Below the pieces are notes generated by a model. That model did no database searches. It saw only the letters and a program-made list of their open reading frames with translations, and was not told the DNA's origin. A DNA stretch of 38,564 nt. It comes from a virus. This document shows positions 1 through 38,251 of the stretch, piece after piece. Where the stretch lies: IMG/VR virus record IMGVR_UViG_3300032038_000266, positions 1 through 38,564 of that record; one strand, written 5' to 3'. Position 1 is the stretch's first letter. Each line of letters begins with the position of its first letter. A program made the position numbers and the translations under genes.

Positions 1-127
1 TCCTCTGCGGCTTTCTCCGCCGCGCTCTTCTTTTGCTTACATCCGACAATCGCGATGCACGCGATGACGAGAATTGTCAATGCTCTTTTCATAGTGCTAT
101 GCTTTTGAGAGTGATTCAATGATCGAG
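1..127. repeat. Terminal overlap identical to 38438..38564 (circular-assembly overlap)
   Basis: Read directly: tcctctgcggctttctcc...gtgattcaatgatcgag occurs at both contig ends. It duplicates the 5' end of the minus-strand lipoprotein gene (ATG at 92..90 here, 38529..38527 at the other end). Confidence 0.95.
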
Positions 128-444
128 AGCAGCCTATCTATCTGCTCATCTTTCTTGGCAAGGAGCTGGACGAATCTTTCACTGTTCACATTATTCCGAT
201 TGCCGGCTACTGCCGTGCTTCCGTCTCCGGACGCGCTCGCCGTACATCCGGACGAGTCCACTCCGTAGAAGAACGGCACATCTTTGCCGATGATTGCCGC
301 AATGTCTTCAAGAAGTCCAGTTCTGATGTCATCTTTTGACAGTGCTGCTGATAAATTTTGTTGTGATATTCCGAGAATCCGCGCACAATGAGCTACGGAA
401 ACTCCATTTTCTTGCAAAATTTTTTTGACTTGTAAACCTTTCAT
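97..444 (-). CDS. XRE/Cro-CI-type HTH transcriptional regulator (candidate switch protein)
   Basis: ORF track 97..504. Start taken at internal ATG 444, giving MKGLQVKKILQENGVSVAHCARILGISQQNLSAAL (N-terminal HTH) and a C-terminal helical ERFVQLLAKKDEQIDRLLSIIESL. It is the first gene of the leftward operon, divergent from the early rightward genes. Confidence 0.7.
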   Translation of the reverse strand: MKGLQVKKILQENGVSVAHCARILGISQQNLSAALSKDDIRTGLLEDIAAIIGKDVPFFYGVDSSGCTASASGDGSTAVAGNRNNVNSERFVQLLAKKDEQIDRLLSIIESLSKA

Positions 445-1711: not shown

Positions 1712-1740
1712 TTATCCACAAAATCGCTTATATCATAAAC
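1712..1740. promoter_or_regulatory. Perfect DnaA-box nonamer (TTATCCACA, 1712-1720) followed by a copy of the 15-bp dyad motif (GCTTATatcATAAAC, 1726-1740)
   Basis: Read directly in the 38-nt gap between ORFs 1208..1711 and 1750..1956. Confidence 0.4.
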
Positions 1741-5798: not shown

Positions 5799-5827
5799 AC
5801 TGTTCAGTTAAAAAATTTGACTGAAAG

Positions 5828-5860
5828 GCGTACAATATAAGCAGAAAATTCATACATTTG
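5828..5860 (+). promoter_or_regulatory. Promoter: degenerate 15-bp dyad (gcgtacaatATAAGC) + 10 nt + -7 box TACATTTG
   Basis: Same ATAAGC-N10-TAnnTTTG arrangement as at 12118-12150. It sits in the 220-nt gap ahead of the replication genes. Confidence 0.55.
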
Positions 5861-5883: not shown

Positions 5884-6021
5884 ATGGCAAAGTCATCTAC
5901 AATCAGAGTTTCGCACTCTCAGAATGGACTCTCCGCGAGGAAGTCCGGCGTTTCTTCACGCAGCTCTTGCGTGTCTGCCGTGACGCTTAGGAGTTCTGAG
6001 AGTGAGAAACTTTTTGTTTGA
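5884..6021 (+). CDS. Possible small Ser-rich ORF (45 aa) or untranslated leader
   Basis: CTATGGCA start context immediately downstream of the promoter. Translation: MAKSSTIRVSHSQNGLSARKSGVSSRSSCVSAVTLRSSESEKLFV. Composition is unconvincing. Confidence 0.25.
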   Translation: MAKSSTIRVSHSQNGLSARKSGVSSRSSCVSAVTLRSSESEKLFV

Positions 6022-6023
6022 CT

Positions 6024-6857
6024 ATGGCAACATCAAACGCATTCTACTTTCCTCACGATATGGATGCCGTGAGTGATCCAAAGCTCCAGTCCGTGCTTCG
6101 CGTGCGTGGAATGGAAGGAATCGGCGCATATTGGTGCTTGCTGGAGCGTCTCTATCGGCAGAACGGAGTCTTGTTCTTGTCGGAGATTCCGGATATGGCG
6201 TGGAGTCTTCATTGTGAAGAATCTCTCCTGGAATCAATCCTCAAGGACTTCGGACTATTCGAGATCCACGGAAACGAAGCGACATCTCGCTCGGCTTCCG
6301 AGAGGATCCTCAAAAGAGAAGAGCGCATCCGCAAGAATAAGGAAGCCGGCTCTCTTGGCGGCAAGACTACTCAAAGCAAGCGTTCAGCATCCGTGCCAGC
6401 AGATGCTTCGCAAATGCGAGACGAAAGTCAAGCAAATGCTCAAGCAGATGCTCAAGCAAATGCTTCGGCGGATGCTCAAGCAGGAAAGGAAAGGAAAGGA
6501 ATTGACGCTGGTGTGAGAGATAATGAACATAGTGTAGGTAAAAAGAAGAAAGAGATTGACTATTCATTTGTAGAAGAGGAACTCCGAGAACTATTCAAAG
6601 AGTTCGTCAAAATGAGGAAGGAAATCGGACATCCTATCAAAACACAACGCGGCGCGGAAGCTCGCTACGAAACACTATCTCGTCTCTCCGGCGGCAGAAT
6701 TGAACTCGCAAAGAAGATCATCCAGCAGTCTCTTGACAAAGAGTGGGAAGACTTCTACGAAATAAAGGACAGCAAAGGCAATGGAACTATCAATCGAAGC
6801 TCTCATCGCGGAAGTGACTCAGGGTATGTCCCTGACTACTCGAACACGGAGTTTTAA
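6024..6857 (+). CDS. Replisome organiser / replication initiation protein (Lin1244/DUF4373-like N-terminal domain)
   Basis: FYFPHDMDAVSDPKLQSVLRVRGMEGIGAYWCLLERLY matches the DUF4373 pattern. Central low-complexity QANAQADAQANASADAQAG segment. ORF track start 6018 is TTG; the ATG is at 6024. Confidence 0.7.
   Translation: MATSNAFYFPHDMDAVSDPKLQSVLRVRGMEGIGAYWCLLERLYRQNGVLFLSEIPDMAWSLHCEESLLESILKDFGLFEIHGNEATSRSASERILKREERIRKNKEAGSLGGKTTQSKRSASVPADASQMRDESQANAQADAQANASADAQAGKERKGIDAGVRDNEHSVGKKKKEIDYSFVEEELRELFKEFVKMRKEIGHPIKTQRGAEARYETLSRLSGGRIELAKKIIQQSLDKEWEDFYEIKDSKGNGTINRSSHRGSDSGYVPDYSNTEF
6398..6484. repeat. Array of dyad-symmetric ~12-bp iterons inside the initiator gene (candidate origin)
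   Basis: AGCAGATGCT 6398-6407, TCGCAAATGCGA 6408-6419, AGCAAATGCT 6431-6440, AGCAGATGCT 6443-6452, AGCAAATGCT 6455-6464 and a degenerate GGCGGATGCT 6467-6476, followed by (GGAAA)3 and an A/T-rich stretch. Confidence 0.45.
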
Positions 6858-10551: not shown

Positions 10552-10848
10552 ATGGCAACGATAACAATCGAAGTGACTCAGACTCCGGAAGGAGCATACA
10601 AGTTTGAGTTTGACGAGCGGCAGCGTCCGCTCCTGACGCTCGCGCTGGGACTCGGAGAGGGCGCGCTCTGCGACTCGTGTCTCACTGGCGCGGCTATGCG
10701 CTACTGCATCTCGCCGTCACGCGAGAAGTGGCTCTCGGACTTCTTCGCCAATGCGGAGAAACTGAACGAATCAATCCGCAACGAAGAGCGGAAACTGCGT
10801 GCCGCGAAGACGGACATCGGCTTCGGCATCAAGAAGAAACTCAGCTGA
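10552..10848 (+). CDS. Hypothetical protein (98 aa)
   Basis: CTATGGCA start context. No motif. Confidence 0.6.
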   Translation: MATITIEVTQTPEGAYKFEFDERQRPLLTLALGLGEGALCDSCLTGAAMRYCISPSREKWLSDFFANAEKLNESIRNEERKLRAAKTDIGFGIKKKLS

Positions 10849-11291
10849 TGAGCCGGAAGAGCGACATACTTGCGCTGCGCAACCGCATCGTCTTCCACAT
10901 CGCTCGGCTCTACGGCGTGGAGACTGCGGCGATTCTCGGACGCAGCCGCGCGACTCCGCTTGCGGACTGCCGCGTGCTGCTCGCATACGCGCTCTCTCAA
11001 GAAGGCTACACGCGCACTGAAGTCGGAGATGCTCTCGGAAGGGATCACTCCAGCATCACTCACTGCGTCCAGCTGGCGGAGAGCCGCATCGGATTCGTAG
11101 GCTGGAAGGACTTCACGCACAAGTGGAACGAGCTGGAGAAGGAGATCTGGGCGGACAAGGATGCCGCCGCAGCGTTCCGCGCCAGGCTCGTGAAAGACTC
11201 CGCTCCAGCCGGAGAGATAATACTGAACACATTCATCATCAAATCACTTAAAGACCAAAGCAATGGCAAACAAGATTCAAGTCAAAATTGA
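10848..11291 (+). CDS. DnaA C-terminal (domain IV)-like HTH DNA-binding protein
   Basis: RSRATPLADCRVLLAYALSQEGYTRTEVGDALGRDHSSITHCVQ parallels the DnaA domain IV pattern (R-x-I-x-x-A-R-Q-I-A-M-Y...GGRDHSTV-x-H). Start ATG 10848 overlaps the upstream TGA by 1 nt. Confidence 0.65.
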   Translation: MSRKSDILALRNRIVFHIARLYGVETAAILGRSRATPLADCRVLLAYALSQEGYTRTEVGDALGRDHSSITHCVQLAESRIGFVGWKDFTHKWNELEKEIWADKDAAAAFRARLVKDSAPAGEIILNTFIIKSLKDQSNGKQDSSQN

Positions 11292-11668: not shown

Positions 11669-12115
11669 ATGGCTCAGAAACGCACAACTCGCGTCCGAGT
11701 GAGGAAGACATCCAGCCGAGTGATGAAAGCCGTGCAGATCGAAGGAGAAGCGCGGCTGGCGCAGAGCGGCGGAGACTTCTTCACTCTCTTTGTTCGTCAG
11801 CAGCTCGGAGCAGTCTGCCTGAAGGAACTCCAGTTCGATGAGCATCGCAAGTTCCGCTTCGACTACGCGCTGCCGGACTACAAGCTCGCGATAGAGATTG
11901 ACGGCGGCATTTGGCAAGAGGGCGGCGGAAGGCACAACCGCGCATCCGGCTGGCTCGTGGATCAGGAGAAACTCAATCTCGCAGTCTCGCAAGGCTGGCG
12001 GATTCTGCACTTCACTCCGCAGCAGCAGAACACTATGAAAACACTGGACATCATCCGCGACTCTATGCGCTTCCGGAGCGTGGAAGTTCAGGCAAATGAA
12101 AATTTACCAAAATAA
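11669..12115 (+). CDS. DUF559/Vsr-like PD-(D/E)XK endonuclease-domain protein
   Basis: FRFDYALPDYKLAIEIDGGIW...DQEKLNLAVSQGWRILHFT fits the D...E-x-D-G core and C-terminal G-W-R-V-L-R pattern of DUF559/Vsr-like nucleases. Confidence 0.5.
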   Translation: MAQKRTTRVRVRKTSSRVMKAVQIEGEARLAQSGGDFFTLFVRQQLGAVCLKELQFDEHRKFRFDYALPDYKLAIEIDGGIWQEGGGRHNRASGWLVDQEKLNLAVSQGWRILHFTPQQQNTMKTLDIIRDSMRFRSVEVQANENLPK

Positions 12116-12117
12116 AT

Positions 12118-12150
12118 GCTTATGATATAAGCAAAAATATCTTAACTTTG
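12118..12150 (+). promoter_or_regulatory. Promoter: 15-bp dyad GCTTATgatATAAGC + 10 nt + -7 box TAACTTTG
   Basis: Dyad at 12118-12132, TAACTTTG at 12143-12150, first ATG at 12157. Lies at the head of the packaging/structural gene block. Confidence 0.6.
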
Positions 12151-12454: not shown

Positions 12455-13003
12455 ATGAAGAAGTACGAACACAATCCGCGCACTTGGACGAAGAAGCAAG
12501 TGCAGCAGCTCCGGAAGTCAATGCTGGAGCTTGGCGATTTGTCCGGCATCGTTCACGATCTGAACTCAGACCAGATCATCGGCGGCAACTTCCGCTCCGA
12601 TATAATGGACATCAACAAGTGCGAGATCGAAATTGTCAAGCAGTATGATGTTCCGACTCCGCAAGGCACTGTCGCAATCGGCTTCGTAACCTGGAACGGC
12701 GAGAAGTTCAACTATCGCCAAGTCCGCTGGACGAAAGAGCAGTGTGACCGTGCTTGCATATCCGCCAATGCTATGGGCGGAGACTTTGACTACGATGAAC
12801 TCGCAAACTACTTCTCCGAGTACGATCTGGAAGAGTTCGGACTGGACTTGTGGAAACCGGAAGAAGCGAAAGAGGAAAAACCGCCGAAAGACAAGCCGAT
12901 CTCTCTTCAGATCAACTTCGCTTCCGAAGGCGAACGGACTCGCTTCATAGTGCTGATGCAAGAGCAGCTGGAGAAAGATTTTGACTGCGAGTTCAAAGCA
13001 TAG
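12455..13003 (+). CDS. ParB-like nuclease-domain protein
   Basis: HNPRTWTKKQVQQLRKSMLELGDLSGIVHDLNSDQIIGGNFR resembles the ParB/Srx N-terminal domain (H-P-R...L-x-x-S-I...I-I-x-G-x-H-R). Confidence 0.5.
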   Translation: MKKYEHNPRTWTKKQVQQLRKSMLELGDLSGIVHDLNSDQIIGGNFRSDIMDINKCEIEIVKQYDVPTPQGTVAIGFVTWNGEKFNYRQVRWTKEQCDRACISANAMGGDFDYDELANYFSEYDLEEFGLDLWKPEEAKEEKPPKDKPISLQINFASEGERTRFIVLMQEQLEKDFDCEFKA

Positions 13004-13031: not shown

Positions 13032-13430
13032 ATGGCATTTGAGAAAGGCAACAAAGACGGCAAGCAGTTCAACTCTGAGTCCGCGAAAAAGGCTCAGAAG
13101 AAAGCCGTGCGCAATCGCTACAAGAACAAGCACGGACGCGAACTGCTTCTGATGCTGCTCCAGCGCAAGTGTGACTTCGCTGATGTTGCTGACGCTCTCA
13201 AGAAGTACGGCTTCACGGAAGCTGAACTGACGAATGAAGTCGCTCTCTACGAGCGGCAAATGGAGCGCGCAATGCGGAAAGGAGACACGAAGGCGTTCAC
13301 GGCAGTGATGAAGACTGCCGGACTGATGACGGAAGAGACTCACGCAGTCCAGGAGACACACATCAAGCTCTCTCCGCTCACGAAGGAAGAAGCGGCTCAA
13401 ATGAAGCAGATGTTCGATGAAGACTTTTGA
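13032..13430 (+). CDS. Putative terminase small subunit
   Basis: Immediately upstream of and overlapping TerL. Basic N-terminus MAFEKGNKDGKQFNSESAKKAQKKAVRNRYKNK. The call is based on position. Confidence 0.5.
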   Translation: MAFEKGNKDGKQFNSESAKKAQKKAVRNRYKNKHGRELLLMLLQRKCDFADVADALKKYGFTEAELTNEVALYERQMERAMRKGDTKAFTAVMKTAGLMTEETHAVQETHIKLSPLTKEEAAQMKQMFDEDF

Positions 13431-14880
13431 TTCATATTCTCCGAAGGAGCTTCAGTATCTCCAGGCACGCTGCTATCACGGCGTGCTTGACTTTACACGC
13501 ATAGGCTTCCAGTTCGAGAATCGTCAGAAGTTCATCGTCGGCGAGCATCACAAGCTCATCGCATCCGCGCTGGACGATGTCATCTCCGGCAAGTGCAACC
13601 GTCTCATCGTGAACATCGCTCCGCGCTACGGCAAGACGGAACTCATCTCGAAGAAGTTCATAGAGTACGGCTTTGCGCTGAATCCGCGCTGCAAGTTCAT
13701 CCTCTTGTCCTATTCCGATGATCTGGTGCTGGACAACTCCAAGAGCATCAACGAAGCGATGCGCTCGGACTGGTATCAGGCGTTCTTTCCGGAGACCGTA
13801 GTCAGCGGAACTGCCGCGAAGATGTGGAAGACCACTGCCGGCGGCGGACTGTACGCAGTCTCCAGTGCCGGACAAGTGACCGGATTCGGAGCTGGACAAG
13901 TGGAGAGCGATGTCGTGACGGATATGGATCTGCCGGACGGAATGCTGGCGGAAGGATCTCCGGAAGCGTTCGCCGGAGCGATTGTCATTGACGATCCGCT
14001 CAAGCCGGAAGACGCACTCTCCGACATCGTCCGCGAGAGAGTCAATTCTCGCTTTGAAACGACAATCCGCTCTCGTGTGAACTCTCGCCGCACTCCGATT
14101 ATCATTGTGATGCAGCGGCTGCACGAACACGATCTCTGCGGCTATCTCCAGGAGACTGAGCCGGACAAGTGGCGCGTGCTTTCTCTGCCGTGCATCTCTT
14201 ACGATGAGAACGGAAACGAGAAGGCTTTGTGGGAGTTCAAGCACAGCGTGGAAGAGCTGCGCGAACTGGAGCGCGTCAATCCGTTCGTCTTCGAGACGCA
14301 GTATATGCAGAATCCGAAACCGCTCGAAGGTCTGATGTATCAGCCGTTCCGAACATACGATGTGCTTCCGACTGGAGCGTATCGCATCAAGAACTACACT
14401 GATACGGCGGACACTGGCGCGGACTATCTCTGCTCGATCACATACGCGGAGTTCGACACGGCAATCTATGTGCTGGATGTGCTGTTCACGAAGAAGCCAA
14501 TGGAGTACACTGAGCCGGAGACTGCGAGGATGCTCACGCGGAACGCAGTCGTGTCTTGCATCGTGGAATCGAACAACGGCGGACGCGGCTTCAGGCGCAA
14601 TGTGGAGAGATGCTGCCGTGAACTCGGAAACAATATGACGCGCTTCACGGACTTCACGCAGACGGCGAACAAGCAAGTGCGCATCTTCTCCCACAGTGCG
14701 GAAGTGAACAATCTCGTCTTCTTTCCGTCCGGCTGGGACTATCGCTGGAGAGACTTCTACAACGCGATTACATCATACCGGAAGGAAGGGCGGAACGCGC
14801 ACGATGATGCGCCGGACGCACTGACCGGACTCGTGGAACATAGAGACTCGCGGCAGAGCAGCCGCTTCTCAAGGACATAA
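13417..14880 (+). CDS. terL: Terminase large subunit
   Basis: VNIAPRYGKTE (Walker A-like), AIVIDDPLKPEDA (Walker B-like), C-terminal nuclease-type HDDAPDALTG. 487 aa. Confidence 0.85.
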   Translation: MKTFDSYSPKELQYLQARCYHGVLDFTRIGFQFENRQKFIVGEHHKLIASALDDVISGKCNRLIVNIAPRYGKTELISKKFIEYGFALNPRCKFILLSYSDDLVLDNSKSINEAMRSDWYQAFFPETVVSGTAAKMWKTTAGGGLYAVSSAGQVTGFGAGQVESDVVTDMDLPDGMLAEGSPEAFAGAIVIDDPLKPEDALSDIVRERVNSRFETTIRSRVNSRRTPIIIVMQRLHEHDLCGYLQETEPDKWRVLSLPCISYDENGNEKALWEFKHSVEELRELERVNPFVFETQYMQNPKPLEGLMYQPFRTYDVLPTGAYRIKNYTDTADTGADYLCSITYAEFDTAIYVLDVLFTKKPMEYTEPETARMLTRNAVVSCIVESNNGGRGFRRNVERCCRELGNNMTRFTDFTQTANKQVRIFSHSAEVNNLVFFPSGWDYRWRDFYNAITSYRKEGRNAHDDAPDALTGLVEHRDSRQSSRFSRT

Positions 14881-20486: not shown

Positions 20487-23400
20487 ATGGCGGACGAAAC
20501 TAAACAAACTTTGCTTGAAGTCAAGCTGAATCTCTCTGACGCGATTCAGGAAATGGCGCAGTATCAGCAGTCAATTGATGATATTGCGATAGAGATGCAG
20601 AAGCTGACTGCGCAGTACAAGAACGGCGAAATCACTCGCCAGCAGTACAATCAGGATATGATCCGTCTGAAGGAGACGCAGAAAGCCTACCGGAAGGAGA
20701 TGAACGAGCTTTCTCGCGTCACGCAGAATCAGATCATCGCGCAGCAGAAATACGAAGGCACTCTGAAAGGGATGTGCGCCGAGCTTTCCGTGGCGAAGGA
20801 CAAGCTCCGCGCGATGAAGACTACGGATCCAGGCTGGGAAGAGCAGCGCGAGTATGTGGACAAGCTGAACGCCAGCATCAAGGAGATCGAGCAGAGCTAC
20901 GGAGTTTATCAGCGCGATGTCGGACACTACCGGACGGAGCAAGAGAAGACGAAAGAGCAGATTGCCGAGACAATCGAAAAGATGCGTGAACTCATCGCCA
21001 CTCATCGCGAGTCTTCTCCGGAGATGCAGAAGTGTTCAGAGGATCTCGCGAACTTCAACAATGCGCTCCAAAATGAGACGAAGAACGGACTGGACTCCGC
21101 GACTCAGGCTACCGCCGGACTCATCGGCGTGATGACGATTCTCGGCAACTCCTTCAACGATGACACGGAGAAGAGTCAGAAGATGCAGTCGCTTATCAAG
21201 GCTCTCGGCGTGGGAATGTCCGCACTGGCTATCGCTACGAAAGTCTATCAGGCTGCGCAGAAGTCCGGACTGCTCACTCGCATCGCTACGAACGCGCAGA
21301 TAAAGATTGCCACTGCTGCTCTGAAGCAAGAAGCCGCCGCCGAAGCCGGAAGCACTGTGGCAACAGTGGCGCACAAGACGGCTCAAGACGCGCTGAACGC
21401 TTCGATGCTCGCGAATCCTATTATGCTCATCGTGGCGGCAGTCGCTCTGCTCGTAGCCGGACTGACGGCTCTCGTGCTGTGGCTCGTCCGCTCCACTGAT
21501 GCGCAGAAAGCCGCCAATGCCGCCGCGAAGGAGTACGAGAAGCAGACGGCTCTCTCGGAAGACGCTATCGCTTCGCTGGACGCTGCCGAGAAAGCTCGCG
21601 CTATCAATCTGCAAGCCGCTTATCAGAGGGAGCTGAAGGCGATGATGCAGAACGGCGCATCGCAAGAAGCGATTGACAAGAAGAAAATGGAAATGGAGAA
21701 CGAGCTTCTCCGTCTCACGATAGAGTCCACGCAGAAGAAAATGGAAGAGCAGAAGAAGGAGATGGCGGCTGCTCTTGCAAACTGGAAGGCGCAAGACCGT
21801 CTTGCGCGTGAACTCATCCGCACGAAAGGCGAGGATGCCAAGAAGACGAAAGAGCAAATCAAGGCGGCGCAAGAAGCGCATCAAACCTATCTGAACATCC
21901 TCAATGCCTACAATGATTCCGTCAAAGCCGTCAATGACGCGCAGTTCTCTATCATCTCGAACTCTTACTCTCGCCGCCAGGCTGCTGCGGATAAGGCATA
22001 CGAGCGCGCGATGCGCCAGCTGGAACACATAGACAAGCGCAGGCAAGAAGCACTCAAGCGTGCCGCCGTCTATGAGTATGACTACACGAAGAGCGCGGAA
22101 GAGAACGCGGAAGCTCGCTGGAAGGCGGCTATGCTCTACGAGCAGCGCGTGTTCAACGCGAAGCAGAAGTTTGAGAAGGATAAACTCGATCTTGAACTGA
22201 GCAGTCACAAAATCACGCAAGAGCAGTACGACCAGGCGATGAAGGAAATGGCTTCCGAGCAAGCCACTTTCCTCAAGCAGCAAGCGGCGGACATCGCCGA
22301 GCATCAGCGCACGCTCCTGGAGAACGCAATCCAGCTCGCCGGCGGCAAACGCTTGGAAGACTTGCTCTCGGAGATGCACGATCAGTTCACGGCTGCTCGC
22401 GAAGCAATCAATCAGGATCTGAATCTCTCCGATGAAGAGCGCGCGTTCTATCTCGAAGAACTGGCGCAGCGTGAAGCGGATGCCGAGCGCAAGATTCGGC
22501 TGGACAACGAGAAGCAAATCTCCGACAACATCAAGCGCATCGTGGACGATCTCTACAAGTATGATGAACGCCAGTTCTCCGCAGAGGAAACGGAGCGCAT
22601 CGCACTGGAGATCGAGACTCAGAAGCGCATCATCGCCGAGCGCAAAGCCGCCGGACTGAACACTGTGGCGGAAGAAGCGAAACTGAATCAGCTGGAGCTT
22701 CAGATGCGCGCCGCGACTCTTGACAAGGACTATCAGCTCGCGTGGAAGAATCAGAAGAAGCAGTATCAACTTCAGAAGAAGTATCTCGAAGACGAGATTG
22801 CTCTCTATGCCGAAGGCACTGCGCAGCGTGCGGCTCTTGAGCAAGAACTGGCGGAACTGACAGTCCAGTACAACGAGCAGAAACTCGAATCCGCGAAGGA
22901 GTATGCGTCTCAGGCAACGGAAGTGTTCTCGCAGATGAACTCTCTGATGTCCGCTATGGAAGAGCGCACGACTTCGCAGTACGAGAAGGACAACGCGGAC
23001 AAGAAGAAGTCGCTGGACGCTCGTCTGAAAGCCGGACTCATCTCGCAGAAGCAGTACGACAAGCAGTCTGCGGAACTTGACGCGGAGCTGGACAAGAAGA
23101 AAGCCGAGATTGCACGCAAGCAAGCGATCCGCGAGAAGGCTCTCTCCGCGATGCAGATTGCAATCAACACTGCCGCCGCAATTATGAAGATCTGGGCGGA
23201 AGTGCCGAAAATGGACTTCGGCGTTTCCACTGGCGTGCTGACGGCTCTTGCCGCAGCAACCGGAGCAATCCAGCTCGCAGCAGTGCTGGCGCAGCCGCTT
23301 CCGACTGCTCGCATCGGCGGTCTCGTCCAGGGCGGCACTCACGAGCAAGGCGGCGTGCTTGTCAATACCGAAGGCGGCGAGCGCATCATCGCAAAAGACG

Positions 23401-23672
23401 CGAGCGCGGCATTTCCGGAGCTGCTGAATCTCATCTCGTACATCGGAAAGCACTCCAGCGTTCCGGACACTGGCTACGCGGCTGCGATGCTCGGATCCAG
23501 GAGCCAGGAGACAGCAGTGGACGGCACTCCGATTGACTACGACATACTCGCGCAGAAGATAGGCGAGCAAGTGAGCGAGTCTCTCCGGCTCAATCCGCCG
23601 CGAATCGCAGTCGATCAGTACGAATCCGCACACGGAGAGTATGTCAGAATAGAAGACACGGCTAAACTCTAA
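20487..23672 (+). CDS. Tail tape measure protein
   Basis: 1061 aa. Long coiled-coil Q/K/E/A-rich sequence with central hydrophobic segments (GLIGVMTILG, MLANPIMLIVAAVALLVAGLTALVLWLV). Confidence 0.8.
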   Translation: MADETKQTLLEVKLNLSDAIQEMAQYQQSIDDIAIEMQKLTAQYKNGEITRQQYNQDMIRLKETQKAYRKEMNELSRVTQNQIIAQQKYEGTLKGMCAELSVAKDKLRAMKTTDPGWEEQREYVDKLNASIKEIEQSYGVYQRDVGHYRTEQEKTKEQIAETIEKMRELIATHRESSPEMQKCSEDLANFNNALQNETKNGLDSATQATAGLIGVMTILGNSFNDDTEKSQKMQSLIKALGVGMSALAIATKVYQAAQKSGLLTRIATNAQIKIATAALKQEAAAEAGSTVATVAHKTAQDALNASMLANPIMLIVAAVALLVAGLTALVLWLVRSTDAQKAANAAAKEYEKQTALSEDAIASLDAAEKARAINLQAAYQRELKAMMQNGASQEAIDKKKMEMENELLRLTIESTQKKMEEQKKEMAAALANWKAQDRLARELIRTKGEDAKKTKEQIKAAQEAHQTYLNILNAYNDSVKAVNDAQFSIISNSYSRRQAAADKAYERAMRQLEHIDKRRQEALKRAAVYEYDYTKSAEENAEARWKAAMLYEQRVFNAKQKFEKDKLDLELSSHKITQEQYDQAMKEMASEQATFLKQQAADIAEHQRTLLENAIQLAGGKRLEDLLSEMHDQFTAAREAINQDLNLSDEERAFYLEELAQREADAERKIRLDNEKQISDNIKRIVDDLYKYDERQFSAEETERIALEIETQKRIIAERKAAGLNTVAEEAKLNQLELQMRAATLDKDYQLAWKNQKKQYQLQKKYLEDEIALYAEGTAQRAALEQELAELTVQYNEQKLESAKEYASQATEVFSQMNSLMSAMEERTTSQYEKDNADKKKSLDARLKAGLISQKQYDKQSAELDAELDKKKAEIARKQAIREKALSAMQIAINTAAAIMKIWAEVPKMDFGVSTGVLTALAAATGAIQLAAVLAQPLPTARIGGLVQGGTHEQGGVLVNTEGGERIIAKDASAAFPELLNLISYIGKHSSVPDTGYAAAMLGSRSQETAVDGTPIDYDILAQKIGEQVSESLRLNPPRIAVDQYESAHGEYVRIEDTAKL

Positions 23673-23683
23673 CACTCGGAACG

Positions 23684-23917
23684 ATGACCGTCTACGAACT
23701 CGCAACAAGCATTCCGCTGGAGCAGCGAAAGATGATGACTGATGCCGGCATCTTGAACGCTTCGGCGGAACGCTACGTCTCTATCTACGAAAAATTCCTT
23801 CAACTCCAGGCTCGCGGAGTGTCAAAAATGGAGTCATACGCGGAAGTGTCGCGAGAGTGCTTCACTTGCGAGGAAAATGTCCGGAAAGTCATCCAAAAAA
23901 TGCAGAAGGAAGTGTGA
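23684..23917 (+). CDS. Hypothetical small protein (77 aa), possible DNA-binding
   Basis: Helical. SYAEVSRECFTCEENVRKVIQKMQKE could be an HTH, but this is not diagnostic. Confidence 0.5.
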   Translation: MTVYELATSIPLEQRKMMTDAGILNASAERYVSIYEKFLQLQARGVSKMESYAEVSRECFTCEENVRKVIQKMQKEV

Positions 23918-23967
23918 TTCCGGAGTGTGGGAAGAAGATTTACCAACAAAATTCAGTTTTAATCCGT

Positions 23968-23999
23968 TAATTTTGCACTGAAACGCTTATAGTATAAGC
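23968..23999 (+). promoter_or_regulatory. -7-like box TAATTTTG (23968-23975) followed by 15-bp dyad GCTTATagtATAAGC (23985-23999)
   Basis: In the 99-nt A/T-rich gap ahead of the head-gene block (ATG 24017). Confidence 0.5.
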
Positions 24000-24016: not shown

Positions 24017-25258
24017 ATGATTACTATCAAGCTCCACAATGTCATCGCCAACGAAGACAATCGCTGGTGGTATTGCTGGGATGAAAATGACGATGTTTTC
24101 TCGCTGGAAGCACTTCAGCGGCTCTTTGAGCAGCATCCGGACGAGAAGGACTGGAAGTTCAACATCCACTGTCCAGGCGGCGAAGTGGAAGAAGGTCTCG
24201 CGATCTACGACTTTCTCCGCACATCCGGCAAGAACATCTATATGAATATAGAAGGCGCGTGTCACTCTATGGCAGTGACGCTGCTTCTCGCCGCGCCGAA
24301 GGAGAATCGCTCTGCGAATCCGAACTGTCTCGCTCTCATCCACAAAGTTTTCGGCTGCGCATACGGCGGAACTGCTGACGATCTGGAAGCAGCCGCCGAA
24401 GAGACTCGTATGCTTCAGAACAAGATTCTGAACATCTACGCAGACCGGACGGACAAGAGCTTTGACGAACTCCAGGAGATAATGAACGAGCAGAAACAGC
24501 GCACTGCTCAGGAGCTGCTCTCGTGGGGATTCATTTCCAAGATCAATTCTTACAACACAAACTACAAACATTCAAAAACTATCGCTATGAACATCAAGCA
24601 AATCAAGGAGTCCGCCAATGCGCTTCTGAACAAGATCGGCGCACTGCTCGGCGGCTCGCACGCGAACTATGAGTTCGTGGATGCTGAAGGCAAAGTGTTG
24701 TTCACTACGGAAAGCGAGTCCGATGAGCTTGAAGTCGGAATGGCTGCAACTCCGGACGGAACATTCGTCATCGCAGACGGCAGAACTGTGACTATCGCAG
24801 ACGGAGTCATCACTGACATCCAGGAAGCCGCCGGCGAGGAAGGCGAAGGCGAAGGCGGAGAAGCTCAGAATCACGAGTTCACTTCCGAAGACGGCACTGT
24901 GCTGTTTACTACCGAAAGCGAGAGTGACGAGCTGGAAGTGGGAATGAGCGCGTCTCCGGACGGCGAGTTCACTCTTCCTGACGGACGCACTGTCGTGATT
25001 GCCGAAGGCGTTATCACTGAGATCCGCGATGCGGAAGAGGAGTCCGAAGAAGTGGCGAATCTCCGCCAGGAGAACGCACAGCTCCGCGAGACTCTCGCCG
25101 AAGCTCAGAATCTCATCCGTGAGATGCAGAAGAACATCAAGAGCAACTATGTCCCTGGAAACCGCGTGTCCAGCACGCAGTCCAACAAGGGCAACAAGCA
25201 GCTCACGCGCGAAGAGCGCAAGAACGCTGTGAAGGAAGCTCTTCATCCGACTAAGTAA
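24017..25258 (+). CDS. ClpP-family (S14) prohead protease fused to a scaffold-like C-terminal region
   Basis: NIHCPGGEVEEGLAIYDF, GACHSMAVTLLLA (Ser) and LALIHKV (His) match the ClpP core. The C-terminal acidic region carries a 68-aa tandem duplication and a coiled coil. Confidence 0.85.
   Translation: MITIKLHNVIANEDNRWWYCWDENDDVFSLEALQRLFEQHPDEKDWKFNIHCPGGEVEEGLAIYDFLRTSGKNIYMNIEGACHSMAVTLLLAAPKENRSANPNCLALIHKVFGCAYGGTADDLEAAAEETRMLQNKILNIYADRTDKSFDELQEIMNEQKQRTAQELLSWGFISKINSYNTNYKHSKTIAMNIKQIKESANALLNKIGALLGGSHANYEFVDAEGKVLFTTESESDELEVGMAATPDGTFVIADGRTVTIADGVITDIQEAAGEEGEGEGGEAQNHEFTSEDGTVLFTTESESDELEVGMSASPDGEFTLPDGRTVVIAEGVITEIRDAEEESEEVANLRQENAQLRETLAEAQNLIREMQKNIKSNYVPGNRVSSTQSNKGNKQLTREERKNAVKEALHPTK
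24671..25033 (+). repeat. In-frame tandem duplication (period 204 nt) in the protease-scaffold gene
   Basis: EFVDAEGKVLFTTESESDELEVGMAATPDGTFVIADGRTVTIADGVITDIQEA versus EFTSEDGTVLFTTESESDELEVGMSASPDGEFTLPDGRTVVIAEGVITEIRDA. Confidence 0.85.
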
Positions 25259-27777: not shown

Positions 27778-29055
27778 ATGAAAGTATCAAGACTACAATC
27801 GGAGAAGCGCGTAGACACTTACAACAATCGCGGCTTGAAGATCCAGGCATACGGAGAGTTCAACGACTTTCCGCAGCGCATCGCCGAGATTGTCGAAGCG
27901 TCCGTGACCGGAAATGCGTGCGTGTCCGTCTACACGAAGTTCATCGTGGGACGCGGCTTCGCTGACGCAAACTTCTGCAATGCCGTCTGCGACAGCAAAG
28001 GAATGACAGTGGATGCTCTGCTCCAGGCTGTCGGAGAAGACTATGCTCGCTTCGGCGGATTCGCGATACATATCAACTACAACGCTCTCCACGAGATTGT
28101 CTCCGCATCGCACTTTCCTTTCGAGTGGCTGCGCTTTGAGCAGCTGGACGAGAACGGACAGTTCAATCGTCTTGCGGCGCATCCGGATTGGGGACGCAGA
28201 TACACGAAGCTCCGTCCGTTCAAGCAGTCGGACATAGAGTATTTCCACTTCTTCAATCCGGATCCGGAAGTCATTGACTCGGAAGTGGAAGAAGCTGGCG
28301 GCTGGAACGGCTACAAAGGGCAGATTCTCTACTTCTCGAACAAAGGCTACAAAGTCTATCCGACTCCGGTCTTTGAAGCCGCAGTCACGGATATGTCCAA
28401 CGAGGAAGGACTGTCCAACATCACGCAGCGCAATGTCAAGCACAACTTCTTGCCGGCTGGAATGATAGTGGACTATGACAACACTTCCAATTCGGACGAG
28501 CAAGAGAAGGAGACGCGCGAAGAGATACGCGAGTTCCAGGGCGATATGAATGCCGGAAAGCTGCTCTACATCAACATCAAGAACGGAGAGCAGAAACCGG
28601 AGTTCGTGCCGTTCGTAGGCAAGAACTTCGACAAGGACTTCGAGCAAGCCGAGAAGAAGACTCCGCAGATAATCGGACGCGCATTCTCGCAGCCGCCGAT
28701 TCTCCGTGCAGAAGATGTCGGAGCGAACTTCGGCGCAGATCTGATGCGCAACGCATACGACTACTACAACTCGATCACTGAGAGCGAGCGTCAGATAGTC
28801 TCTCGCGTCTTCAAGAGCATCTTCGACTTGTGGAACGATCCCACTATCAACATAGAGAAGAACTACGACATCGTGCCAAAGTTCTATCGCGTGAACGCCA
28901 CTCTCGCGGAGCGGCTCGGAGCGAATGTGGAGAAGGTGCTGGAGATTCTTGGAAATGCGTCTATGAACGAGCGCGCAAAGTCCGTCATCCTCTCTACGGT
29001 CTACGGCATCGAAGAAGACGAAATTGACAAACTTCTTGAAGGAATGCGGATATGA
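27778..29055 (+). CDS. Putative portal protein
   Basis: 425 aa. N-terminal YGEFNDFPQRIAEIVEASVTGNACVSVYTKFIVGRGF and central YPTPVFEAAVTDM...NVKHNFLPAG patterns recall portal families. Not verified. Confidence 0.5.
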   Translation: MKVSRLQSEKRVDTYNNRGLKIQAYGEFNDFPQRIAEIVEASVTGNACVSVYTKFIVGRGFADANFCNAVCDSKGMTVDALLQAVGEDYARFGGFAIHINYNALHEIVSASHFPFEWLRFEQLDENGQFNRLAAHPDWGRRYTKLRPFKQSDIEYFHFFNPDPEVIDSEVEEAGGWNGYKGQILYFSNKGYKVYPTPVFEAAVTDMSNEEGLSNITQRNVKHNFLPAGMIVDYDNTSNSDEQEKETREEIREFQGDMNAGKLLYINIKNGEQKPEFVPFVGKNFDKDFEQAEKKTPQIIGRAFSQPPILRAEDVGANFGADLMRNAYDYYNSITESERQIVSRVFKSIFDLWNDPTINIEKNYDIVPKFYRVNATLAERLGANVEKVLEILGNASMNERAKSVILSTVYGIEEDEIDKLLEGMRI

Positions 29056-35880: not shown

Positions 35881-35908
35881 ATCATTTTCGTAGTCTCACG
35901 AAAATGAT
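35881..35908 (+). terminator. A/T-rich perfect hairpin after the lysis cluster, abutting a -7-like box TATATTTG (35909-35916)
   Basis: atcattttcgt-agtctc-acgaaaatgat (11-bp stem). No clean T-run, so terminator function is uncertain. Confidence 0.35.
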
Positions 35909-36112
35909 TATATTTGCATATCAACTCGGACACTCTTGTGGGAGCTGAAGAAAACAGCGGCTGCTGATCTGATTGCAAGCGGAGATGCAGAAGTGACGGA
36001 ACGGATGCTCAATGGCGATAGACGAAAGTCGCGGAAAGTCAGTCGTGCGCACGGCTGGCTTTCTTGTTAAAAATGCTTATCTTTGTAGCCGGAAACGGCG
36101 GCTCGGAGAGCT

Positions 36113-36127
36113 GCGTATGTCATAAGC
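36113..36127. promoter_or_regulatory. Fifth copy of the 15-bp dyad motif (GCGTATgtcATAAGC)
   Basis: Read directly in the non-coding region upstream of int. A TATCTTTG -7-like box lies at 36078-36085. Confidence 0.4.
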
Positions 36128-36139
36128 AATTCCAGCAAT

Positions 36140-36379
36140 TTTGTTGCTGGTTTGTTGCTCAAAATTTGAAAAGATAGATGCAAAGCACTGATATTTCGCG
36201 ACATACGCGAGTTTTACTAAGAACTGCCACGGAAAGGGGATAGTGTAAAGCCGGAACAACAAGAAACAAATGCAGACAAGCTGGAAGCACGATTCGGTTT
36301 GTCTGCTTTTGTTTGGATATGCGACATTTTTGTTGCATCTTTGTTGCGCTGCTTCCAAAAAAGCAACAAGCGCAACAAA
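36140..36379. repeat. Six copies of TTTGTTGC in phased pairs upstream of int (candidate arm-type/regulatory sites within attP)
   Basis: Direct copies at 36140, 36151, 36329 and 36340 (11-bp spacing within pairs). Inverted copies GCAACAAG at 36363 and GCAACAAA at 36372. An 11-bp inverted repeat tttgttgcgct (36340-36350) / agcgcaacaaa (36369-36379). Confidence 0.5.
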
Positions 36380-37553: not shown

Positions 37554-37808
37554 CTACTTGCCGAAGATGTTTCCTCTTCCAGTGAGAAGCCAGTTCGCGT
37601 TCACTCCGTAGTCTTCCACGAGATAGCGCAGCCAGGCGCACTGGAAGATGTTGCGCTCAGGCGATTTGCGGAGCTGGTAGAGATTCCGCCGATTGATTCC
37701 GTGCTGCTCCGTGAAGTTCGTCACTCCGTGGATCCGGCGGATGTCTTTCAGTGTGTCCAGTGCAAGGAAGAAGCGGCGCACTATCGCTTCGGAGTCCGGA
37801 GTCTGCAT
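37554..37808 (-). CDS. HTH DNA-binding protein (84 aa)
   Basis: C-terminal NANWLLTGRGNIF, typical of XRE-like HTH proteins. Last gene of the leftward operon; its stop abuts the int stop. Confidence 0.6.
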   Translation of the reverse strand: MQTPDSEAIVRRFFLALDTLKDIRRIHGVTNFTEQHGINRRNLYQLRKSPERNIFQCAWLRYLVEDYGVNANWLLTGRGNIFGK

Positions 37809-38251
37809 AGTTCTTCAGATTTATCGTTTGCGGCAGCGAATTTCGCGTCTATCTCGGCAAGATGAGCAGATAGTCGTTTTTCCAGCGAGCCGCGCTCTGC
37901 GGCTAAAAGAGACGGCAAAGCGCGTGTTTTGACGCACTCTTCAAAGTCGGAGAGTTCCGCCGCAGTCATTATCGGCAAATACTTCTCATATTCGAGCAGT
38001 TCGCGGATGTAGAGCAGCGTCTCGTCCTGGAGCCGGAAGCGAGTGTCCAGCATATCGCCGTCTCCGGTCAGAAGCCAGCGCGCATTCAGTTCCGGCACGG
38101 CTCGGACAATCGCAAGGACTGGAGTCAGTCCAAAGTTCTCTCCGCAGAGCAGCTTCGTCAGGTATTGCGGAGTCCAGCCGCAGAGCGAAGCGAACTCTCG
38201 CTTGCGTCCGCCAGTCTTGTAGTCTATGATCTGAGCAAGACGCGTCTTCAT
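37781..38251 (-). CDS. HTH regulator with C-terminal helical domain (candidate CI-like repressor)
   Basis: MKTRLAQIIDYKTGGRKREFASLCGWTPQYLTKLL...ARWLLTGDGDML, plus an about 90-aa C-terminal domain. Confidence 0.6.
   Translation of the reverse strand: MKTRLAQIIDYKTGGRKREFASLCGWTPQYLTKLLCGENFGLTPVLAIVRAVPELNARWLLTGDGDMLDTRFRLQDETLLYIRELLEYEKYLPIMTAAELSDFEECVKTRALPSLLAAERGSLEKRLSAHLAEIDAKFAAANDKSEELCRLRTPKR

Follow-up and report, generated by a model that had tools for sequence, protein, structure and literature searches.

Which factor reads the 15-bp palindrome GCTTAT-N3-ATAAGC that stands ahead of the packaging genes of this phage, and what would its recurrence at four further places in the genome mean for control of the lytic genes? 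To our knowledge, gene regulation in temperate Bacteroidales phages is almost unstudied, and the literature on Quimbyviridae promoters and on the repressors and operators of Bacteroides temperate phages yielded nothing on this dyad or on the 84-aa protein considered below. The DNA analysed here, called the window, is the complete genome of a temperate phage of Bacteroidales (an IMG/VR record of 38,564 bp, 53% GC) and carries direct terminal repeats. Relatives of its TerL were found in Bacteroidales MAGs and genomes, and we therefore applied to it the promoter rules of Bacteroidota, whose -7 consensus is TAnnTTTG at -12 to -5 of the start site (PMC9723704). We propose, with a probability of roughly 0.55 and on sequence grounds, that an 84-aa protein represses the lytic genes via the five dyads in the prophage.

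Five dyads at conserved gene junctions

The window holds five copies of the palindrome at two or fewer mismatches, against 1.07 expected, and none of 100 dinucleotide shuffles of the window reached five matches. When the window was scanned with a position-weight matrix trained solely on the sites of three relatives, the five sites scored 19.2-24.3 bits and the next-best 15-mer, which is coding, 8.4 bits. All five lie within the 4.9% of the genome that our own ORF tiling leaves non-coding, for which our own arithmetic gives a chance of 0.049^5 (~3e-7). A sequence-only reading of this DNA had listed five copies, all of them in intergenic gaps and with no well-matched copy in coding sequence, and had named a matrix scan as a check; its coordinates and sequences proved exact, and the scan confirms the intergenic restriction. 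Gene layout, from PHROG and Pfam calls, is given with the other features in Table 1.

Table 1. Dyads, predicted promoter boxes, repeats and genes of the window
Feature	Position	Strand	Sequence	Remarks
Dyad D	1726-1740		GCTTATatcATAAAC	Between early 167-aa gene (1208-1711) and 68-aa gene (1750-1956), 9 nt before ATG
Dyad E	5828-5842		GCGTACaatATAAGC	Head of replication module (5884-6021, 6018-6857)
Dyad A	12118-12132		GCTTATgatATAAGC	Head of packaging/tail operon (12157 onward; TerL 13417-14880)
Dyad B	23985-23999		GCTTATagtATAAGC	Head of head/DGR/lysis operon (protease 24017-25258)
Dyad C	36113-36127		GCGTATgtcATAAGC	Upstream of int, 13 nt before first TTTGTTGC repeat of putative attP
-7 box by E	5853-5860	+	TACATTTG	10 nt after dyad
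-7 box by A	12143-12150	+	TAACTTTG	10 nt after dyad, 6 nt before ATG 12157
-7 box by B	23968-23975	+	TAATTTTG	9 nt upstream of dyad
-7 box by C	36078-36085	+	TATCTTTG	27 nt upstream of dyad
TTACCAA element	12104-12110	+	TTACCAA	7 nt upstream of dyad A
TTACCAA element	23940-23946	+	TTACCAA	21 nt upstream of site B -7 box
Repeats	36140-36379		TTTGTTGC	Five copies: two tandem pairs 11 bp apart and one inverted
Lysogeny block		-		CI-like HTH gene 97-444, lipoprotein gene wrapping the ends, 156-aa HTH gene 37781-38251, 84-aa gene 37554-37808
CI-like 115-aa HTH protein (CI-115)	97-444	-		First lysogeny-operon gene; control region 445-619 without dyad
156-aa HTH and coiled-coil protein	37781-38251	-		Overlaps, and probably co-transcribed with, the 84-aa gene; disfavoured binder
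84-aa HTH protein (predicted XRE/CI fold)	37554-37808	-		Proposed dyad binder; phrog_9710; predicted recognition helix INRRNLYQL, residues 38-46
Lytic genes, first part		+		Early genes, RecT and exonuclease, replication initiator and helicase loader, methyltransferase, TerL 13417-14880
Lytic genes, later part		+		Tape measure 20487-23672, protease 24017-25258, portal 27778-29055, DGR Avd and reverse transcriptase, endolysin
Integrase (int)	annotated from 36270			After endolysin

Three further complete relatives carry five dyads at the matching gene junctions, namely G001 (37.7 kb, TerL 75% identical to that of the window), the prophage contig G010:C12 (TerL 89% identical over the best segment) and G011:C168 (TerL 71% identical), and the inter-site distances correspond around the circle. 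Conservation in related phages, another check that the sequence-only reading had named, is thus present at five syntenic sites in three other complete genomes. Dyad E is syntenic in G001, G010, G011 and the ENA contig L172, and dyad D, which follows a 167-aa gene conserved among the relatives, is syntenic in G001, G010 and G011; spacers and flanking DNA have diverged among syntenic sites. Partial sets occur, as expected, in the fragments L006 and L007/L008 and in L172. A close, L007-type relative of the window phage with helix IDRRNFYQL (L174/L175, contigs of ERR6170113 and ERR6170108) has kept site A alone, as GCGTAT-N3-ATACGC, and has lost the dyads at the C, D and E positions; the five-site set is therefore not obligatory.

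Beyond these relatives, an IMG/VR scan for the dyad, spacer and -7 box returned 12 loci, of which G001 and G002 alone are relatives; we regard the other ten as chance because they are single sites with no protein in common with the window. A second 'site' in G004, GCGTAGGGCATACGC, was rejected as coding. Alistipes and Rikenella phages with ~65% identical TerL share only TerL with the window and have no comparable dyad. The G010 phage contig (35-39 kb) has five dyads versus four degenerate matches in the other 1.66 Mb, and outside the phage contig of G011 the dyad count is at the level of control patterns. We therefore rejected a host-factor regulon, the host MAGs (G010, G011) having no dyad enrichment outside the prophage, and regard the dyad as phage-specific.

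Around int, the TTTGTTGC repeats have only one further copy elsewhere in the window, and amid them a strong hairpin (36272-36306, a 14-bp stem with a T-run) overlaps the annotated int start; the true start probably lies ~100-130 nt downstream of 36270. Judged by their arrangement, repeats and hairpin probably form an attP core with Int arm-type sites, and dyad C would therefore lie at the edge of attP. Upstream, the stretch 35881-36100 contains an inverted repeat (ATCATTTTCG...CGAAAATGAT) directly before a -7 box, TATATTTG at 35909, conserved in G011 and G010. In the window this box would transcribe ~180 nt of non-coding DNA before site C, a stretch absent from G011; Rfam returned no family in 35881-36100.

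Dyad symmetry and promoter geometry

Across an alignment of 35 sites, positions G1, C2, T4, A5, T11, A12 and C15 are invariant, and variation is limited to T3G, T6C, A10G, G14A and, once, A13C. Both half-sites are conserved and, in the 6-N3-6 arrangement, lie about one helical turn apart; the spacer is free, and half-site variants occur in either half (e.g. G011 site B). Unpaired bases fill 19 of 168 pair cells with no compensation, and covariation is at the shuffled-control level by every measure (190/500 shuffles). The free spacer and the uncompensated half-site changes therefore indicate a protein-binding dyad rather than a hairpin. A palindrome could instead fold into a hairpin, in RNA or in single-stranded DNA, and serve for example as an attenuator, terminator or processing site: the genes all run in the same direction, so that read-through RNA would hold every copy, sites A and B fold (-5.3 and -4.4 kcal/mol), and a T run follows site C in G001. 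However, sites C, D and E form no hairpin, the broken pairs go uncompensated, most sites lack a U-tract on the coding strand, and an Rfam scan of the window gave no matches; a compensated stem followed by a U-tract, as in an intrinsic terminator or structured RNA, was not found. We give a hairpin function hardly any credence, and we consider it highly probable, from the aligned sites, their synteny and their enrichment in the phage, that the five dyads are functional and bound by protein.

We found eight exact forward TAnnTTTG boxes in the window, four of which adjoin dyads (at A, B and E, and upstream of C) and one of which is the early promoter at 535; the start sites that follow are predicted. 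The sequence-only reading had noted exactly 10 nt and then a TAnnTTTG box after the copies at 12118 and 5828, which is correct (TAACTTTG at 12143 and TACATTTG at 5853). At site A the order is shared by six genomes (TTACCAA, 6-8 nt, dyad, 8-10 nt, TAAnTTTG, 6-8 nt, ATG), the dyad centre lies ~-28 to -30 relative to the predicted start, and mRNA from this putative promoter would be near-leaderless. At site B four genomes share another order (TTACCA(A/T), exactly 21 nt, TAnnTTTG, 8-11 nt, dyad, 10-17 nt, ATG), with the dyad at about +5 to +22 of the upstream predicted promoter (centre ~+13); in the window it covers about +6 to +20. Site E of the window and of G010 has the A-type order, dyad and then -7 box. 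G001 and G011 reverse it: their E dyads come 9 nt after a near-consensus box and are followed by the ATG at 10-18 nt, the boxes by E in these two genomes being imperfect or missing. Site D has no recognisable -7 box on either side in four genomes, and its dyad lies 9-14 nt before the ATG of the 68-aa gene. Finally, in three genomes a TAnCTTTG box precedes the dyad of site C by 27-43 nt, and a conserved TTTTGTTGC follows this dyad at 8 nt.

Two positional claims of the sequence-only reading stand in part. That the dyads head transcription units agrees with the exact -7 boxes adjoining A, B and E, but D has no recognisable promoter and C abuts the putative attP; that the dyad occupies the -33 region is true of some sites, but at B, and at E in two relatives, it lies downstream of the -7 box. 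Because of this downstream placement, 'operator of a repressor' fits better than 'upstream promoter element'. More generally, a dyad that may stand on either side of the core promoter, or without a promoter, is better read as a repressor or roadblock operator than as an activator site.

The activator alternative holds that a phage dimer bound near -30 replaces a missing -33 element and turns on delayed-early and late promoters, by class II activation or sigma appropriation. It draws on the geometry at A, C and E (window and G010), where the dyad ends 8-10 nt before (T/C)AnnTTTG with its centre at ~-30, and on the late promoters A and B, which lack the -33 TTTG that the early promoter at 535 possesses (TTTG, 19 nt, TACCTTTG); lambda CII and a phage 186 regulator are also among weak fold matches. 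Activators, however, need a fixed upstream position, and at B (four genomes) and E (G001, G011) the -7 box comes first, and the 10-17 nt between dyad and ATG leave no room for a promoter. Site D lacks any box, and the gene of the proposed binder belongs to the lysogeny operon rather than to the early lytic genes. We regard activation as improbable and retain the repressor operator.

A second element, TTACCAA, has just two copies in the window, each slightly upstream of a late-operon dyad, and is also found upstream of A and B in G001, G010 and G011; it may be a late-promoter element or the site of a late regulator. The 77-aa HTH-like gene (23684-23917) adjoins the copy at 23940, and in the replication region of G010 TTACCAA also occurs in arrays at 12-bp spacing. 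Inverted repeats of the form TTCAGT...ACTGAA flank the DNA immediately before dyads E and B (5805-5827 and 23952-23984) and recur in the early leader (548-598); they are seen in the window and in none of the relatives. A perfect DnaA-box nonamer, TTATCCACA, lies at 1707-1715, 11 nt upstream of dyad D, and is probably due to chance, since the relatives lack it.

The 84-aa protein and other candidate binders

The sequence-only reading had suggested that a dimeric phage regulator uses the dyad as its operator or activator site, and had offered as candidate binders the HTH proteins at 97-444, 37554-38251, 10848-11291 and 23684-23917. The dyad is indeed conserved and phage-specific, and the interval 37554-38251 does contain the gene for the 84-aa protein; the proteins of 97-444, 37781-38251, 10848-11291 and 23684-23917 fit less well. 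The 84-aa protein matches the full-length profile of phrog_9710 (E 3.7e-30; residues 1-83 on profile positions 2-84 of 95), a family without assigned function or DNA target, and no Pfam model matches it. Its AlphaFold2 model (mean pLDDT 92.3, pTM 0.83) has predicted helices at 4-22, 29-36, 40-48, 57-67 and 71-76, and the variable INRRNLYQL segment corresponds to helix 40-48, the expected recognition helix. Foldseek placed the N-terminal domain of phage 186 CI first (prob 0.96, TM 0.56, with a weak E of 0.16), and lower matches at E>1 were XRE-family regulators, ImmR and lambda repressor; searching PDB sequences with the profile of the family gave nothing significant. From the confident model we predict an XRE/CI-like fold for the protein, and it has no obvious dimerisation domain apart from the long N-terminal helix.

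The gene is the last of the minus-strand lysogeny operon (CI-like, lipoprotein, 156-aa HTH, 84-aa). It has no minus-strand consensus box before it in the window and therefore probably shares a transcript with the CI-like gene. From lineage to lineage the gene order stays constant (a repressor-like gene, one or two small genes, the phrog_9710-type gene and int, usually convergent), and in Porphyromonas prophage records the homologue is named 'repressor protein', by annotation only. Bacteroides phage Versailles (ON453897) also encodes a family member, with helix IDRRNFIAQ, and 7.8 kb of its sequence contained no GCTTAT dyad. A set of 5.8 billion proteins contains at least 1488 family members at E<=1e-6, none with a Pfam domain.

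Single-sequence searches for relatives with the 97-aa or the 84-aa protein gave no matches, and alignment queries were needed. A metagenome scan with the alignment of the 84-aa protein returned 11 loci. Among the longer of them, L151, L153, L158 and L160 (34-44% GC) have helix INRRNLYQL and dyads of 17.9-23.9 bits; by tblastn with all window proteins, the 84-aa protein is the sole match in L160, and just RecT (33-37% identity) joins it in L151, L153 and L158. L162, also INRRNLYQL, has two intergenic dyads (24.0 and 18.0 bits) in its ParB_N/NinG and SMC/RecT gaps. L152 has the same helix, yet no dyad within 8 kb on either side. No dyad was present at any of eight loci with an INYWNL helix (five from the metagenome scan, three from the IMG/VR scan), and family look-ups found none of >=16 bits at six loci with other helices.

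We also sampled 80 IMG/VR loci, picked solely by homology to the 84-aa protein, at a site threshold of >=16 bits. All seven INRRNLYQL loci carried the dyad (12 sites in 92 kb) vs 3 of 73 others (3 sites in ~863 kb; hypergeometric ~4e-8 by our own calculation, an upper bound on significance given three or four lineages). The comparison overstates independence because the loci fall into few lineages (the window clade, the RecT-SMC phages, L160 and perhaps L213). Exceptions to the link are L181, with helix INRWNLNTL and a promoter-adjacent dyad of 22 bits, and L219, with a 19.5-bit site.

Other helices accompany other palindromes. Helix IDRRNFYQL occurs with GCGTAT-N3-ATACGC at site A (L174/L175, L007), and the INRRNMFTL loci L197/L198 have a symmetric GCTTAC-N3-GTAAGC. 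In the same SMC-to-RecT gap, L166 (INRRNLYIL) has a palindrome that keeps GTGCTT...AAGCAC with the inner bases changed. GTGCTT-N7-AAGCAC palindromes are seen at L166:5319-5333 and at a second site of L160 (3647-3661), with inner bases unlike those of GCTTAT-N3-ATAAGC, and the dyad of the RecT-SMC lineage is longer, reaching outward to GTGCTTAT-N3-ATAAGCAC. For the INYWNL phages, the candidate cognate palindromes CATGCA-N3-TGCATG and AGCAAT-N3-ATTGCT were rejected, both being coding. Genome-wide de novo dyad discovery was swamped by codon bias; confined to the surroundings of exact -7 boxes, it did not recover the positive control.

Seven proteins, CI-115 and the 156-aa, 84-aa, 167-aa, 68-aa, 77-aa and 80-aa HTH_17 proteins, are conserved in all four complete genomes. 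A real operator might be read by another binder, such as the 68-aa (1750-1956), 77-aa (23684-23917), CI-115 or 156-aa HTH protein or a host factor: the candidate phage proteins have invariant HTH-like stretches in the four genomes, the 68-aa gene stands right after site D and the 77-aa gene right before site B, and L152 has the helix without the dyad and L181 the dyad without the helix. However, we detected no homologues of these alternatives in the dyad-bearing L160, L151, L153, L158 and L162, and the motif is not enriched in the host MAGs beyond the prophage. A homologue of the 156-aa protein (44% identical, with a near-identical HTH) occurs in L164, where 20 kb contain no dyad, and the dyad-bearing L160 and L162 lack this protein. 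CI-115 is disfavoured, as L160 and L162 have no homologue and their CI-like proteins are unrelated, and the 77-aa protein has no detectable homologue in other dyad-bearing lineages. Two further proteins were set aside: the Bac_DnaA_C HTH protein (10677-11291) is missing from all three complete relatives, which keep the dyad, and the ParB-like protein (12455-13003) is missing from G011, which keeps it as well. Another binder is in our judgement rather unlikely, and the 84-aa protein, going by its co-occurrence with the dyad, is the likely one.

Proposed regulation and known systems

The early switch appears to be separate from the dyads. Region 445-619 contains a full-consensus early promoter (TTTG, 19 nt, TACCTTTG at 535), two minus-strand -7 boxes within a repeated GGAACAAARATAC (481, 571) and, in a conserved leader, GTTCAGT...AAACTGAAA. 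G001 and G011 have kept this region, and neither it nor the equivalent region of the relatives contains a dyad or half-site. The operators of the CI-like protein, TTGTAGnAACAA-like, probably lie within it.

We propose that a dimeric HTH protein of the phage uses the dyads as its operators and that this protein is most probably the 84-aa product, which would be made together with the CI-like repressor from the lysogeny operon. At A and E the bound protein would occlude the -33 region of sigma-A-type promoters, and at B, D and C it would act as a roadblock just past the start site or inside the operon. The outcome would be silencing of the replication, packaging/tail and head/lysis sub-operons, which appear to have good sigma-A boxes of their own, and of transcripts entering attP/int, with the CI-like protein handling the early switch at 445-619. 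We infer from the arrangement that the 84-aa protein physically binds the dyads as a dimer, that it represses and does not activate, and that it is expressed in the lysogen.

A close counterpart is found in cluster A mycobacteriophages, whose ~20-30 stoperators are asymmetric, 13-14 bp long and fixed in orientation. Their immunity repressor (L5 gp71 and relatives) binds as a monomer, acts on the early promoter as well and can block transcription already under way (PMC9283540, PMC6550527). Like stoperators, the dyads are dispersed over short intergenic gaps beyond the early operator, here as five sites syntenic in four genomes, and a stoperator-like role would suit site D, which has no promoter, and site B, which lies just past the start. 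Unlike them, the window sites are palindromic and five in number, the immunity switch has none, and the protein proposed to bind them is not the CI-like one but a second protein.

In phage P1, C1 is a single lysogeny-expressed repressor that silences many lytic operons via dispersed operators; those operators are asymmetric 17-mers, and C1 is large and unrelated to XRE-type HTH proteins. The direct silencing of separate lytic operons proposed here resembles P1, whereas the palindromic site and small XRE-type protein do not. With the CI proteins of lambda, 434, P22 and 186 the 84-aa protein would share a predicted five-helix XRE/CI-like fold, a palindromic operator (half-site centres 9 bp apart) and a gene in the lysogeny operon; unlike them, it has no C-terminal oligomerisation or S24 domain, the divergent cI/early region has no operators for it, and a separate CI-like protein is present. 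The nearest parallel is 186 CI, which also represses a distant late-activator promoter. The link between phrog_9710 and GCTTAT-N3-ATAAGC is newly proposed here.

More tentatively, phrog_9710 may comprise second-tier immunity repressors that are widespread in Bacteroidales prophages (1488 clusters at least), invariably close the immunity operon beside int, and act at dispersed operon-head and roadblock sites, not at the CI switch, with an operator code set by the helix. In such a code INRRNLYQL would specify GCTTAT-N3-ATAAGC, IDRRNFYQL would specify GCGTAT-N3-ATACGC, and so on. If the 84-aa protein does act on the five dyads, the result would be a defined cis-element, a regulon of five conserved sites, a protein partner that is open to testing and comes from a large, functionally unassigned family (phrog_9710, no Pfam), and a map of likely promoters for the window phage group. 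A correct helix-operator link would allow prediction of cross-repressing gut prophages and supply orthogonal repressor/operator pairs for Bacteroides genetics, and phrog_9710 proteins, if they do form such a class, would shape cross-immunity among co-resident gut prophages.
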